A DNA stretch of 64,000 nucleotides from Planctomycetota bacterium. Its GTDB lineage: Bacteria > Planctomycetota > UBA1135 > GCA-002686595. Positions 6,220 to 25,592 of the stretch are shown here, piece after piece. Numbering within the stretch: position 1 is the first letter of the stretch; every line of letters begins with the position of its first letter. The stretch lies in NCBI GenBank assembly GCA_020638835.1, contig JACKHV010000009.1:17093-81092 (forward strand), read 5' to 3'. The notes under the pieces are model-generated. The model saw only the letters and a list, made by a program, of their open reading frames with translations. It was not told where the DNA came from and ran no database searches. The position numbers and the translations under genes were made by a program.

Positions 6220-7245
6220 ATGACCGCCGCCTCCTTGGAACGCCTCCGCACCGTCCACGCCCGGATGAAGGAGGAGCTCCACCGCGTGATCGTCGGACAG
6301 GACGAAGTCCTCGACCAGCTCCTGATCGCGATCCTGACCCGCGGCCACTGCCTGCTCGTCGGCGTGCCGGGCCTCGCGAAGACGCTGATGATCTCGAGTC
6401 TGTCGAAGACGATGGACCTCGGCTTCCACCGCATCCAGTTCACGCCCGACCTGATGCCGAGCGACATCACGGGCACCGAGCTGCTGCACATCGACCCCGA
6501 GACGTCGGCGCGCTCCTTCCGCTTCGAGCCGGGGCCGATCTTCGCGAACGTGATCCTCGCGGACGAGATCAACCGCACGCCGCCCAAGACGCAGTCCGCG
6601 CTGCTCGAGGCGATGGTCGAGCGCCAGGTGACCTCGGCCGGCAAGCGCCACGAGCTTCCCGATCCCTTCTTCGTCCTCGCGACGCAGAACCCGATCGAGC
6701 AGGAAGGCACCTATCCGCTGCCCGAGGCGCAACTCGACCGCTTCATGTTCCAGGTGCACGTCGGCTATCCGACGCTCGAGGAAGAGCGCGAGATCCTGCG
6801 GCGCACGACGGCCGGCAAGCCCGCCGAACCCGAGCGCGTGCTCTCCGCGGAAGAACTCTTCGACATGCAGGCCGCGGTGCGCGCGATGCCGATCGCGGAC
6901 CACGTCTTCGACTACGCGCTGGCGTTGACCCGCGGCACGCGCGTGCGCTCGACCGATCCGCTGCCTTTCTTGAAGGACTGGGTCTCCTGGGGCGCCGGTC
7001 CGCGCGCTTCGCAGTTCTTGGTGCTCGGCGCCAAGGCGTGCGCGGCGCTCGCCGGCCGCGACCACGTCGCGATCGAAGACGTCAAGCAGGTCGCGCACCC
7101 CGTGCTGCGCCACCGCATCGTCACGAACTTCTCCGCCGCCGCGGAAGGCATCACGTCCGACGCGATCGTCGACCGCCTGCTCGCCGAGATCGACCCCGCC
7201 GCGGGCGTCGGCAAGGGCGTCCCGGGCGTCGCGCAACGCCAATAG
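6220..7245 (+). CDS. MoxR-family AAA+ ATPase
   Basis: [65 protein letters not shown]...[21 protein letters not shown]: canonical MoxR Walker A, Walker B and sensor regions. 341 aa. Confidence 0.93.
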
Positions 7246-7263
7246 GTCCGCGGAAGGCTGATC

Positions 7264-8175
7264 TTGGCGGAAGGACGCTTTTCGACCTTCGACCCGGCGG
7301 TGCTCGACCGCCTGGCCGGTCTCAGCCTCGTGGCGCGCACGGTGGTCGAGGGCTTCATGTCCGGACACCACCGCTCGCCCCACGCGGGCAGCTCCGTGGA
7401 GTTCTCGCAGTACCGCGAGTACGTGCCCGGCGACGAGCTGAAGCGCATCGACTGGAAAGTCTTCGCGCGCTCGGACCGGCTCGTCGTCAAGGAGTTCATC
7501 GAGGAGACGAACCTCGCGCTGCACCTGCTCGTCGACGCGTCGGAGTCGATGGCCTACGGCTCGCTCGACTGGACGAAGTTCGACTACGCGCGCTGGTGCG
7601 CCGCGGCGCTCGGTCAGCTCACGCTGATGCAACGCGACACCGTCGGCCTCGTGCTCTTCGACGACCAGCACAAGAAGCGCGTCTCCCCCGGCAACGGCGC
7701 GCCGCAACAGAAGGCGATCATCGACCTGCTCGAGGGCGCGACCGCGGACGGTCCGACCGGCATCGGCAAGGTGCTGAACTGGCTCGGCACGCGACTCTCG
7801 CGCCGCGGCATCGTCGCGGTCTTCTCCGACTTCTTCGACGACCCCGAACAGATCGTCGGCGGACTGCGCCGCCTGAAGTTCGCCGGCCACGAACCGATCC
7901 TGTTCCAGATCCTCGATCCGCAGGAACTGCGCTTCGACTTCGGCAACCAGATCAAGCTCGAAGGGCTCGAGGCCGCCGGCGCGCTGCGCGTCGACGCGAA
8001 GGCGATCCGCGCGGAGTACCTCGCCGAGATCGAGCGGCACAACGACGCCCTCGCGCGCGAGGCGTCCTCGCTGAACATCGACATCGTGCGCATCGACACT
8101 TCGCAGCCGCTGGACGCGGTGCTGTCGACCTACCTCGCGCACCGTAGCTCGCGCGTCCGCGGAGGTCGTCGCTGA
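7264..8175 (+). CDS. DUF58 family protein (vWA-like), MoxR partner
   Basis: TTG start 7264. HHRSPHAGSSVEFSQYREYVPGDELKRIDWKVFARSDRLVVKEFIEE is the DUF58 signature. The position after MoxR is typical. Confidence 0.88.
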   Translation: MAEGRFSTFDPAVLDRLAGLSLVARTVVEGFMSGHHRSPHAGSSVEFSQYREYVPGDELKRIDWKVFARSDRLVVKEFIEETNLALHLLVDASESMAYGSLDWTKFDYARWCAAALGQLTLMQRDTVGLVLFDDQHKKRVSPGNGAPQQKAIIDLLEGATADGPTGIGKVLNWLGTRLSRRGIVAVFSDFFDDPEQIVGGLRRLKFAGHEPILFQILDPQELRFDFGNQIKLEGLEAAGALRVDAKAIRAEYLAEIERHNDALAREASSLNIDIVRIDTSQPLDAVLSTYLAHRSSRVRGGRR

Positions 8176-23545: not shown

Positions 23546-24432
23546 TGAAGGACATCCTCATGCGACGCCACGGACGACGACTGCTGTTCTGCAGCCTCTG
23601 CGCCTTCTTGCTCGTGTGGTCCGCCACGGCACAAGTGCCCGAGGTCGGGCCGGATCCTGTGGACGAGGGCCAACCCGTCGAAGAAGAGGCGCCCGCGCCC
23701 TTCTCGCCGCGCGAAGACGCCGGCGACCTCGAGGCCGAGATGCGCAAGATCTTCCAGCGCGTCGAGACGAAGTTGCGCGACATCGACGTGCTGCTGACCG
23801 ACGCGAGCGCCGGTGACACGCGCCGCCTCGCCGAGGCGGGCGAAGCCGGCATCGACGAACTCCTGCGGCGTTCCGTCGAGGACGGACGCGCGGTGCAGCG
23901 CGAGATCGACGAGCTCCTGCAGCTCGCGCAGCAGGTGGGGTCGAGCTGCTCGTCCAGTTCCTCGAGCTCGTCGCAGAACGGGCAAGGGCAACAAGGCCAG
24001 TCCAGCGGACAGCCGAGCCCCCTCGACCAAGGCCCGGGAAGCCAGCGCAGCCAGGAGGCGACGCCCACCCTGCCGGAGCAGTCGCAGCCAGGCGGCGAGC
24101 CGGAAGGCGAGCAGCACGGCGATCAGCCCGGCGGCGAGCAGGAGGGCGAACAGCCCGCGGACGGCAAGCAACAGCCCGGCGAGGGCGAGCAGCCCGAGGA
24201 CGGACCGGAGCGCCCGGACGACGATCCCCGCAACATCGCGGGCGACGACCCGAAGGCCGGCGAGACGTCGGCTCCCTCGCGCGCCGATCTCTCGGAGCGT
24301 TGGGGTGAGTTGCCCGTGCACGTGCGCGACGTGTTCCGCACGGAAGGCGGCGAGGACATGCCTGCCGAGTACCGCGACTGGATCGACGCGTACTACCGCA
24401 AGCTGAACGAGCGCGCCGCACAAGGTCGCTGA
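23542..24432 (+). CDS. Exported protein with Ser/Gln/Glu/Gly-rich linker and conserved C-terminal segment
   Basis: GTG 23542 or ATG 23545 overlaps the upstream TGA. Hydrophobic signal LLFCSLCAFLLVWSATAQ. C-terminus RWGELPVHVRDVFRTEGGEDMPAEYRDWIDAYYRKLNE. No named domain recognised. Confidence 0.55.
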   Translation: MMKDILMRRHGRRLLFCSLCAFLLVWSATAQVPEVGPDPVDEGQPVEEEAPAPFSPREDAGDLEAEMRKIFQRVETKLRDIDVLLTDASAGDTRRLAEAGEAGIDELLRRSVEDGRAVQREIDELLQLAQQVGSSCSSSSSSSSQNGQGQQGQSSGQPSPLDQGPGSQRSQEATPTLPEQSQPGGEPEGEQHGDQPGGEQEGEQPADGKQQPGEGEQPEDGPERPDDDPRNIAGDDPKAGETSAPSRADLSERWGELPVHVRDVFRTEGGEDMPAEYRDWIDAYYRKLNERAAQGR

Positions 24433-24446
24433 GCGAGGGAGGCGGA

Positions 24447-25592
24447 GTGAGTCGACGCGGCGCGCTGACGGCCTGCACGGCTCTGGGACTCTGCCTGCTG
24501 TGCAGCGGCGAGGAGCCACCCGAGCGCGCGCAAGAACGCGTGCCTTCGAGCCCCGAGCTGACGCCCGGACTCGAGGTGCGGGACTCGCCGCAGGACCGCG
24601 CGGCCCGCACGGCGGTCGACCTCGCGCTCGCGCGCCTCGCGGCGTGGCAGCACGAGGAGACGGACGGCTCGATGCCGCCCGCCGGCGCTCGCGAGTTCGC
24701 TCCAGTCGCGACGACCGCGCTCGCAGCGCTCGCTTGGATGGCGACGGGGAGCACGCCGGGTCGCGGACCGTACGGCGCGGAGCTGTCGCGCGCGCTCGAC
24801 TACCTGATCGACCACACCGAGCTCGACGAGAAGTCCGAGACCTACGGCTACGTGTCCGATCAACGCGACGCGCTCTCGCGCACGCACGGCCACGGCTTCG
24901 CGACGCTCGCGATGGCGCAGGCCTTCGCGCTGTCACCGGAGAGCGCGCGCGGCCGCCGCTTGCAGACGGCGCTGCACGCGGCCGTCGCGTGCATCGAGAA
25001 CAGCCAGGGTTCCGAAGGCGGATGGGAGTACGCGCCGAAGAAGCTCGTGAACCATGAGGGCTCGGTGACGATCTGCCTCGTGCAGGCGCTGCGCGGCGCG
25101 AAGGATGCCGGCCTCGCCGTCGACCGCAAGGTCATCGAGCGCGCGCTCGGGTACGTGCGGAGGTCGCAGAAGGACGACGGTTCGTTCCGCTACGCGATCG
25201 GCAACGACCGCAGCTCCGTCGCACTGACAGCGGCCGCGCTCGCGACGCTGAACGCCGGCGGCGAGTACTCGGGCAGCGTCGTCCTGTCGGGCTTCGACTG
25301 GCTGGTTCGCGAACTCGCCAACCGCGCCGAGGACCGCGCCTGGGCGAGCGGCGAGCGCCCCGCCTCGCACTTCCCGCACTACGAACGCTTCTATCTGGCC
25401 CAGGCGTTCTGGCAGCACTCCGAGCGCCGCGTCTTCGACGAGTGGTTCGCCGAGGAGCAGCGCCGGCTCCTGCTGGACCAGCAGGAAGAGGGAGCCTGGC
25501 TCGACGACAGCTACGGCGCCGTCTATGCGACTTCGATGAGCGTGCTGGTCCTGGCCCTCCCGGACGGCCTGCTGCCGGTCTACCTGCGCTAG
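24447..25592 (+). CDS. Exported prenyltransferase / squalene-cyclase-like alpha/alpha-toroid repeat protein (2 of 2)
   Basis: GTG start preceded by a GGGAGG RBS. Signal or lipobox-like ALGLCLLCSG. Toroid-type repeats: ETDGSMPP, SEGGWEYAP, KDDGSFRYA, QEEGAWLDD. It shares the C-x-V-x-ALR segment with the 17319 protein (VVCQVLALRAARNIGI vs TICLVQALRGAKDAGL). Confidence 0.7.
   Translation: MSRRGALTACTALGLCLLCSGEEPPERAQERVPSSPELTPGLEVRDSPQDRAARTAVDLALARLAAWQHEETDGSMPPAGAREFAPVATTALAALAWMATGSTPGRGPYGAELSRALDYLIDHTELDEKSETYGYVSDQRDALSRTHGHGFATLAMAQAFALSPESARGRRLQTALHAAVACIENSQGSEGGWEYAPKKLVNHEGSVTICLVQALRGAKDAGLAVDRKVIERALGYVRRSQKDDGSFRYAIGNDRSSVALTAAALATLNAGGEYSGSVVLSGFDWLVRELANRAEDRAWASGERPASHFPHYERFYLAQAFWQHSERRVFDEWFAEEQRRLLLDQQEEGAWLDDSYGAVYATSMSVLVLALPDGLLPVYLR

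Follow-up and report, generated by a model that had tools for sequence, protein, structure and literature searches.

A conserved ten-gene MoxR-DUF58-BatA-DUF4175 cluster in Planctomycetota, probably encoding one cell-envelope system

Operons encoding a MoxR-type AAA+ ATPase, a DUF58 protein, and BatA or other VWA-domain proteins are present in many bacterial phyla, including the pathogens Bacteroides, Borrelia, Leptospira, and Francisella. To our knowledge, no agreed function has been assigned to them after 25 years. The Rhizobium leguminosarum operon RL3499-RL3502 ('cmdA-D') is presumably one of these, of the MoxR-DUF58-TIGR02226-DUF4175 type, and we take RL3501 and RL3502 to correspond to TIGR02226 and DUF4175. 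According to the passages that cite the original work, mutation of this operon results in envelope and morphology defects (cited in PMC3893208, PMC5700661). The Bat proteins have been suggested to form a large complex in the envelope, with its function unresolved (PMC3557215). In the MxaRSACKL module, MoxR, the DUF58-type MxaS, the VWA proteins MxaC and MxaL, MxaA, and MxaK are each needed for Ca2+ to enter the periplasmic pyrroloquinoline quinone (PQQ) propeller protein MxaF (PMC12276312). The cluster described here occupies positions 6220-25592 of a 64,000-nucleotide stretch of DNA, the window (contig JACKHV010000009.1, positions 17,093 to 81,092), which has 70% GC and is part of a 4.16-Mb metagenome-assembled genome (MAG) of Planctomycetota (GCA_020638835.1). 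Judged by its gene content, it is the Planctomycetota version of this widespread and functionally unexplained module. No description of the extended planctomycete cluster was found in the literature searched.

The region is filled by ten open reading frames (ORFs), g1 to g10, all on the + strand. The GC content at third codon positions is 0.86-0.94 in each of them, which in a 70% GC genome represents a coding signature. The ORFs, starts, stops, and junctions were exactly those given in a preliminary description of ten genes placed end to end, which had left out only a gap of 18 nt between g1 and g2. The junctions range from 4-nt overlaps to this 18-nt gap. The g2/g3 and g3/g4 junctions are 1-nt TGATG overlaps (at 8175 and 10397), 4-nt overlaps are found as GTGA at 12769, ATGA at 17319, and GTGA at 23542, and the remaining gaps are of 4 nt (g6-g7), 1 nt (g7-g8), and 14 nt (g9-g10). 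The sequence GGGAGG is located 6-11 nt 5' of the GTG start of g10. An independent gene call, that of an NCBI MAG, showed equally tight gene spacing. The packing is operon-like, and the ten-gene cluster, a putative operon, is real and deeply conserved. We consider it reasonably probable that the ten genes form one conserved cell-envelope system, in which an inner-membrane-anchored periplasmic assembly would be built or remodelled by MoxR and DUF58.

Conservation within the order was studied with tblastn searches of the ten proteins against 20-kb stretches from 20 genomes and a 15.6-kb contig of a MAG of the same genus. The gene set and its order were identical in essentially all of these stretches, the absences coinciding with the ends of contigs or of the 20-kb stretches, and g5 was present in 41 of 41 relatives. 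A wider sample included 20 further loci (designated L with a number, as are the other loci below) from about 17 other families of Planctomycetota. Thirteen of them kept the order of g1-g10 over the whole fetched stretch, and two more had a shorter g5 at the g5 position. Among 301 genomes sampled across the phylum, g7 was found in 240 and g5-like proteins in 137 (E<=1e-20). When the place tables were compared by eye, about 55 genomes had their g5 and g7 matches at most 8 kb apart on one contig and strand. Because the ten genes recur in one order across the order and much of the phylum, the arrangement is far beyond chance. The linkage of the distal genes to MoxR and DUF58, proposed on the basis of this one window, was recovered in 20 of 20 genomes of the order and in most of the sampled families of the phylum, clearly contrary to the refuting outcome named with that proposal, a lack of synteny in related genomes. 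In the cluster's own genome g3, g4, g5, g7, g8, and g9 are single-copy. The genome includes six further MoxR paralogues (C13:122988-124801, C1:986497-988470, C1:1050746-1052712, C1:275612-281656, C11:20038-20934, and C11:411993-412930), four of which lie beside DUF58-like genes, and no g3-, g4-, g5- or g7-like gene was found beside any of the six.

The first four genes had been described as a MoxR / DUF58 / BatA_N-VWA / VWA-GATase1-like core, and the Pfam and NCBIfam matches agree with this. The product of g1 (6220-7245, 341 aa) is a MoxR-type AAA+ ATPase, predicted to be cytoplasmic, with matches to AAA_3 (1e-62, full profile 1-131) and AAA_lid_2 (3.6e-20). Its Walker A (GVPGLAKT) and Walker B (ILADE) motifs are intact, it has neither a transmembrane (TM) helix nor a signal peptide, and its identity to the relatives is 57-95%. 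It also matches bpMoxR (PF20030), and as MoxR, VWA, and a beta-propeller are all encoded in the locus, a MoxR-vWA-beta-propeller conflict (defence) system of the type of Kaur et al. 2020 was considered. The bpMoxR match reaches 45.8 bits against 210 bits for AAA_3, however, and PADLOC gave no match for the ten proteins. The locus includes no effector or EAD-type (effector-associated) domains, its propeller is exported, and it occurs as a single copy with vertical conservation throughout the phylum, in contrast to defence islands, which are sporadic (PMC7159879). The probability of a defence system is therefore close to nil.

The DUF58 protein g2 (7264-8175, 303 aa) has a VWA-like fold (PF01882 5.1e-46, profile 1-214 of 216; VWA_2 1e-8) and no hydrophobic segment, and is predicted to be cytoplasmic. 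The g3 protein (8175-10397, 740 aa) consists of a BatA_N double-TM anchor (PF07584 7.7e-18; TIGR02226 1.2e-22), a VWA domain (VWA_2/VWA), a GATase1-like region with a weak match (3.3e-4), and a C-terminal TM helix. Its TM helices are at about 5-23, 59-77, and 715-733, the loop 26-55 is rich in Arg and Lys, and the C-terminal tail is RRR. The g4 protein (10397-12772, 791 aa) has a two-TM anchor (25-43 and 56-74), a VWA domain (3.7e-4), a GATase1-like domain (2e-6; 28 bits with a cut-off of 27), and a hydrophobic C-terminal helix at about 766-785, followed by GRKKW. The sole Cys of g4 is outside a nucleophile-elbow context, so amidotransferase catalysis would not be expected of it. The DxSxS motif of the metal-ion-dependent adhesion site (MIDAS) is intact in three proteins, as D91-A-S-E-S (91-95) in g2, D101-A-S-A-S in g3, and D95-D-S-A-S in g4.

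Hydropathy and charge rules predict the VWA domains of g3 and g4 to be periplasmic and MoxR and DUF58 to be cytoplasmic: following the positive-inside rule, the Arg/Lys-rich inter-TM loops and C-terminal tails place the bulk of both membrane proteins in the periplasm. The VWA domain of Borrelia BB0173, mapped experimentally to the periplasm, agrees with this prediction (PMC5700661). The preliminary description regarded MoxR and the VWA proteins as a chaperone-MIDAS module. With the predicted topology, a simple form of it, in which MoxR acts on the VWA MIDAS sites, would need a transmembrane relay.

The core extends beyond these four genes. By orthology, g7 (18544-20829, 761 aa) and g8 (20831-23545, 904 aa) are assigned as the N- and C-terminal halves of a split DUF4175 protein. 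No significant Pfam family was found for g7, g8, or g9 of the window, and a search with Pfam DUF4175 (PF13779) gave no match in the cluster's own genome. DUF4175 was matched by 5 of the 28 g7 orthologues (best 1.1e-12; profile 192-377) and by 10 of the 23 g8 orthologues (best 5.8e-9), the matched stretch, where printed, lying at about 621-766 of the 825 profile positions. No TIGR02302 match was obtained when the g8 orthologues were searched with NCBIfam. Single proteins that join the parts corresponding to g7 and g8 occur in L047 (1185 aa) and on a plasmid of Gemmatirosa kalamazoonensis (1268 aa). The assignment is based on these two findings, the orthologues matching the N- and C-terminal parts of DUF4175 and the fused forms. 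With this assignment, the core of the cluster is MoxR-DUF58-BatA_N/VWA-VWA-DUF4175, and it is also present in Gemmatimonadota, where DUF4175 appears as one fused protein. In the widespread MoxR-DUF58-BatA_N-DUF4175 operons the DUF4175 gene ordinarily stands last. The order of genes in the Gemmatirosa locus (L055) is a VWA protein, a 1166-aa TPR/Peptidase_MA-like protein, MoxR, DUF58, BatA, and the fused 1268-aa DUF4175-like protein. This locus (NZ_CP007129.1 719488-761374) is on a 1.1-Mb megaplasmid of Gemmatirosa kalamazoonensis (Gemmatimonadota), unannotated in the PLSDB table, and MacB/FtsX-type permeases come next after the fused gene. The DUF4175 of the Acinetobacter baumannii AdvA paper concerns the N-terminal TM region alone and is irrelevant here.

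The AlphaFold2 (AF2) model of g7 (pLDDT 88.8) includes helices 11-54 and 58-85, which form a TM hairpin, a helical insert at about 90-150, a third TM helix at 150-172, three to four Ig-like beta-sandwiches at 195-530, and a helical bundle at 533-760. Most of the 28 orthologues share the third hydrophobic segment (about 150-178), and residues A94 and E98 of the insert are nearly invariant across the phylum. The protein had been called a two-TM protein, which has to be given up, as the AF2 model, hydropathy, and the orthologues all point to three hydrophobic helices. It is predicted to be anchored in the inner membrane by three TM helices, with the N-terminus and a small helical insert in the cytoplasm and a large domain in the periplasm. 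Searches with the model in Foldseek found generic tandem Ig/macroglobulin domains alone (TM-score <0.2). Homology to alpha-2-macroglobulin or complement was rejected, the matches reflecting the repeated beta-sandwiches, and phmmer searches with g5 and with g7 found no matches in PDB.

The exported half, g8, has a signal-peptide-like N-terminus and is rich in Ala, Glu, and Gln (A 18%, E 15%, L 12%, R 11%, Q 10%), with no Cys and few prolines, and is probably largely helical. Its former designation as a coiled coil is plausible by composition, but the heptad signal is weak, significant 3.5-residue periodicity being only weakly enriched and present in 15% of the 56-aa windows.

The genes from g5 onwards had been interpreted as a separate exported extension of about 12.8 kb. 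Its linkage and its exported nature stand: g5-g10 all start with signal-peptide-like or TM segments and are predicted to be exported or membrane-anchored. The notion of a separate appendix does not, as g7 and g8, by the above assignment core DUF4175, are distal to g5 and g6, so that core genes bracket the additions. The variants of the cluster are of several kinds. The order g1-g2-g3-g4-g7, without g5 or g6, is found in L053 and in L046, whose family is represented by complete genomes of 5-7 Mb. In L049 a g5 homologue is situated between g3 and g4, and in L047 and L052 there are g7-g10-like genes with no MoxR nearby. The short variants without g5 and g6 and the g7-g10-like genes away from MoxR would also be expected if the MoxR/VWA core were merely adjacent to one or more independent sets of secreted-protein genes, as would the independent promoters reported for the Leptospira bat genes (PMC3557215). 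Such a composite locus is very improbable when set against the phylum-wide conservation of order, the overlapping junctions, the placement of the core genes g7 and g8 distal to the additions, and the position of g5 between g3 and g4 in one family. The reading of the cluster as one system is supported, because core and additions are interleaved, their order is conserved, and the packing is operon-like.

The largest of the exported proteins, g5 (12769-17322, 1517 aa), has a predicted signal peptide followed by TPR, a PQQ-like propeller, TPR, and a BamB-like propeller; its N-terminus, MRAALCTLFLLLGATSFA/QDE, resembles a signal peptide. In Pfam it matches PQQ_2 (3e-24). The match to BamB (TIGR03300, 4.9e-14 over 1128-1246) is far under the equivalog cut-off, and that to PQQ alcohol dehydrogenase (TIGR03075) reaches 39.6 bits with a cut-off of 480. 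When a profile of 21 orthologues was compared with PDB, TPR was found at about 170-212 and 736-860 and BamB at 1139-1452 (E ~1e-13), while the matches to dehydrogenases span 70-130 residues only. The g5 orthologue of L049 has explicit TPR_19 and TPR_6 matches. On these profile matches, g5 is a TPR/propeller scaffold and not a quinoprotein enzyme. Equivalents of the TPR protein BatC and the SH3 protein BatE had been reported as not obvious; no BatD or SH3 family was indeed found, but TPR modules are present inside g5. A further, shorter propeller protein is encoded upstream of the cluster by a 714-aa ORF at 1273-3417 (PQQ_2 2.6e-6), which is missed by tblastn with g5 at E<=1e-5.

The propellers of g5 are also the basis of the main rival explanation, an Mxa-like maturation function. 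The MoxR/VWA proteins would then be a transient chaperone loading a metal or cofactor into a client, g5 and perhaps g6 and g10, and not part of a permanent structure. The sole biochemically tested MoxR-DUF58-VWA-VWA module loads Ca2+ into a periplasmic PQQ-type propeller of the same cluster (PMC12276312), g5 carries PQQ-like propellers and has its start codon inside the g4 stop overlap, and the MIDAS metal sites are kept in all three VWA domains. The closest relatives of g5 by profile are, however, BamB and TPR scaffolds, its dehydrogenase score is that given above, and the clusters of other families keep g1-g4, g7, and g8 without g5. For DUF4175, the toroids, and g9 there is no testable Mxa counterpart. 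Maturation of this kind is accordingly possible but rather unlikely.

The toroid proteins g6 (17319-18539, 406 aa) and g10 (24447-25592, 381 aa) are exported paralogues, 31-33% identical to each other. Pfam matches of g6 are to SQHop_cyclase_C (4.4e-11) and Prenyltrans (6.5e-7), that of g10 to SQHop_cyclase_C (2.7e-6). In the AF2 model of g6 (pLDDT 77, pTM 0.80), one (alpha/alpha)6 toroid, about 340 residues long, is preceded by a Sec-type signal peptide. Its top Foldseek matches were single-domain myxobacterial 'SHC-like' proteins (8pak, TM-score 0.57-0.65), the GlcNAc-binding AprG, and GH76 mannanases, and the full-length squalene-hopene cyclase (SHC) 2sqc gave a TM-score of 0.33 on the target. 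With 44-87% identity across the phylum, g6 is the best conserved of the distal proteins, and g10 is kept at the cluster end in most relatives. The thioester motif CxEQ, which would link the toroids to the thioester domain of alpha-2-macroglobulin, was sought in g6 and g10 and not found.

Publicly, homologues of g6 (P0121-P0240) are named 'squalene cyclase', 'terpene cyclase/mutase family protein', and 'prenyltransferase beta subunit'. These names, with the Pfam matches to SQHop_cyclase and PQQ, would fit a locus encoding a metabolic pathway, with g6 and g10 as squalene or terpene cyclases or prenyltransferases and g5 as a PQQ dehydrogenase. Class II terpene or squalene-hopene cyclases are two-domain (beta-gamma) proteins of about 630 aa with a DxDD motif, and g6 was rejected as one of them: it is a single toroid behind a signal peptide, and its score against hopene cyclase (TIGR01507) is 29 bits with a cut-off of 431. 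The DxDD motif is not conserved, D146 alone being invariant and the orthologue consensus being QEDGY. The dehydrogenase score of g5 is likewise far below its cut-off, and genes for isoprenoid or PQQ biosynthesis are absent nearby. An enzymatic pathway is thus extremely unlikely, and the public cyclase and prenyltransferase names of g6-type proteins are probably wrong.

In the variants without toroids the distal end is of another type. In L046, L049, and a plasmid of Planctomyces sp. SH-PL62, it consists of an NPCBM carbohydrate-binding protein in place of the toroid. The NPCBM/NEW2 genes of the toroid-less variants are at L046:17803-19008, L049:870-2372, and L054:10785-13523, with a HtrA-type protease next in L046. 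This suggests, at the level of gene content, that a glycan-binding subunit is an interchangeable distal element. Contact with glycan is suggested by the replacement of the toroids with NPCBM proteins together with the resemblance of the g6 model to sugar-binding toroids, and the g6 and g10 toroids may thus bind glycan. The two toroid copies of the cluster are located one between g5 and g7 and one at the cluster end. A relative of the same family has tandem toroid genes (374 and 379 aa) between g5 and g7 (L056:7717-9985).

The remaining protein, g9 (23542-24432, 296 aa), is exported, acidic, and of low complexity, and it has a helical module at its N-terminus, a Cys at position 136, and a conserved C-terminal motif. 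A Pfam scan of 18 g9 orthologues found no family. The motif, WGxLP...P..YRxWIxxYYxxL (24300-24432 in the window), is phylum-wide, occurring also in the short variants and in a TPR-fused form, and orthologues with it are found at L046:16724-17785, L047:16039-16785, L049:2087-3238, and L054:10187-10735. The codon of Cys136 is TGC (at about 23947), just after the N-terminal helical module. In five relatives an in-frame TGA aligns with it (L016:18078, L017:17857, L027:17907, L021:2367 on the - strand, and L056:15324-16547), and in all five the frame past the TGA continues without a stop as far as the conserved C-terminal motif. Cys is found at this position in five other orthologues, whereas in at least 15 the residue is neither of the two. 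Hairpins start 8-17 nt past each TGA, their stability being no better than that of shuffled sequences in this GC-rich sequence. In L056 (NCBI MAG GCA_016714045.1), the annotated 137-aa gene ends at the TGA and 810 nt are left unannotated; when read through the TGA, it gives a full-length orthologue, and the gene directly after it is another g9 paralogue, this one lacking both Cys and Sec. The g9 of the window is the Cys form of a probable exported Sec/Cys protein family, with candidate selenocysteine in the relatives.

The alternation of Cys and in-frame TGA in g9 would suit a Bat-type aerotolerance or redox function, in which periplasmic proteins are protected or repaired under oxidative stress and the Cys or Sec of g9 is redox-active. 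The BatA_N domain of g3 and a candidate thioredoxin-fused selenoprotein 2 kb downstream of the cluster are likewise in keeping with it, and, as summarised in PMC3557215, a bat mutant of Bacteroides fragilis is less aerotolerant and is rescued in part by reductants. On the other hand, deletion of batABD in Leptospira left the tolerance to reactive oxygen species unchanged (PMC3557215), and the residue is neither Cys nor Sec in the at least 15 orthologues mentioned. The ten proteins have no thioredoxin, peroxiredoxin, or DsbA-like domain, and the families BatD and BatE were not detected among them with Pfam and NCBIfam. We regard a redox function as very unlikely. The purely redox, enzymatic, and defence readings are all poorly supported.

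From the gene content, linkage, conservation, domain folds, and MIDAS and Walker motifs, combined with the published work on the Mxa, R. leguminosarum, and Leptospira modules, we infer how a single envelope system could work. The MoxR ATPase g1 and its VWA-type co-chaperone, the DUF58 protein g2, would form a cytoplasmic motor. Three inner-membrane proteins would face the periplasm, g3 and g4 presenting MIDAS-VWA and GATase1-like domains and g7 its Ig-like domains and helical bundle. Their exported partners would be the scaffold g5, the possibly glycan-binding toroids g6 and g10, the long helical g8, and the acidic, Cys-bearing g9. ATP-driven remodelling by MoxR and DUF58 would be relayed across the membrane by the anchors g3, g4, and g7. 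In g3 and g4 the candidate relay elements are the cytoplasmic loops, and in g7 the conserved insert on the cytoplasmic side. The relay would control the MIDAS (metal)-dependent capture, loading, or release of g5, g6, g8, g9, and g10, and the output would be to build or maintain a periplasmic assembly needed for envelope integrity.

Several points weigh against this proposal. The cluster's own g7 and g8 fall short of the DUF4175 threshold, which is reached by orthologues alone, and the short variants with g1-g4 and g7 show, as far as gene content tells, a core working without the additions. Among the proteins of the cluster, neither an outer-membrane beta-barrel nor a domain that binds peptidoglycan was recognised. 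In Leptospira, the bat genes had independent promoters, and their deletion produced no phenotype in morphology or under oxidative stress (PMC3557215).

In a more specific form of the envelope-system reading, all ten proteins would make up one machine that spans the periplasm and is peculiar to Planctomycetota, with MoxR and DUF58 driving the MIDAS-dependent assembly of a glycan-binding scaffold from the giant g5, the toroids, a DUF4175 stalk, and a Cys/Sec subunit. This we find unlikely. If true, such a scaffold would give order to the planctomycetal periplasm, which is unusually large and plastic, or to surface structures, and it would give the first function and architecture for the whole MoxR-DUF58-BatA-DUF4175 family.

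The cluster is bordered by non-coding flanks of 238-337 nt upstream and 243 nt downstream. Its upstream neighbours are a RAYT-like gene together with a small membrane ORF on the opposite strand. Downstream, after the 243 nt, an alpha/beta hydrolase gene is followed by a CRTAC1-thioredoxin gene. A consensus scan for promoters and terminators gave nothing above shuffled sequences, and an Rfam search of 5000-27000 found no match.

The arrangement physically links the enigmatic core to a full set of candidate partners or clients, namely the propeller/TPR scaffold, the toroids, the two halves of the putative DUF4175 protein, and the Cys/Sec protein. As the linkage spans a phylum with cultured, genetically tractable members, it gives testable hypotheses on the ligands of MIDAS and the targets of the ATPase. 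It also points to systematic mis-annotation, of g6-type proteins as 'squalene cyclase' and of g9-type genes cut at a probable selenocysteine codon.

The closest tested analogue of the cluster is the Mxa accessory module of methylotrophs, the sole homologous module with a demonstrated biochemical role. Both have MoxR and three VWA-type proteins beside a periplasmic PQQ-type propeller, the likeness being one of domain class (PMC12276312). They differ in that g5, with 39.6 bits for a cut-off of 480, is no dehydrogenase of methanol or other alcohols and that equivalents of MxaF, MxaI, MxaJ, and MxaG are missing, while the DUF4175, toroid, and acidic proteins belong to the planctomycete cluster only, which is phylum-wide in non-methylotrophs.

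The Bat loci of Bacteroides, Leptospira, and Borrelia (MoxR, DUF58, BatA-BatE) share with the cluster MoxR and DUF58 followed by two membrane VWA/MIDAS proteins, the first of them with BatA_N, and a VWA domain facing the periplasm (BB0173, PMC5700661), predicted here for g3 and g4. The second membrane-anchored VWA protein, g4, is comparable to BatB, yet much larger. BatA and BatB are about half as large as g3 and g4, which have GATase1-like domains in addition. No BatD or BatE (SH3) family was found in the ten proteins (Pfam/NCBIfam, E<=0.01), TPR is inside the giant g5 and not in a stand-alone BatC, and the Bat loci are without DUF4175, toroids, and g9.

The MoxR-DUF58-TIGR02226-DUF4175 operons, as on the Gemmatirosa plasmid, have those four gene types in the same order as the planctomycete cluster, where g7 and g8 stand for DUF4175 by orthology. 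They are compact operons of four genes, whereas the cluster has ten, with the putative DUF4175 protein split into g7 and g8, and adds to them the second VWA-GATase1-like protein g4, the giant g5, two toroids, and, as a separate tail protein, the acidic g9.

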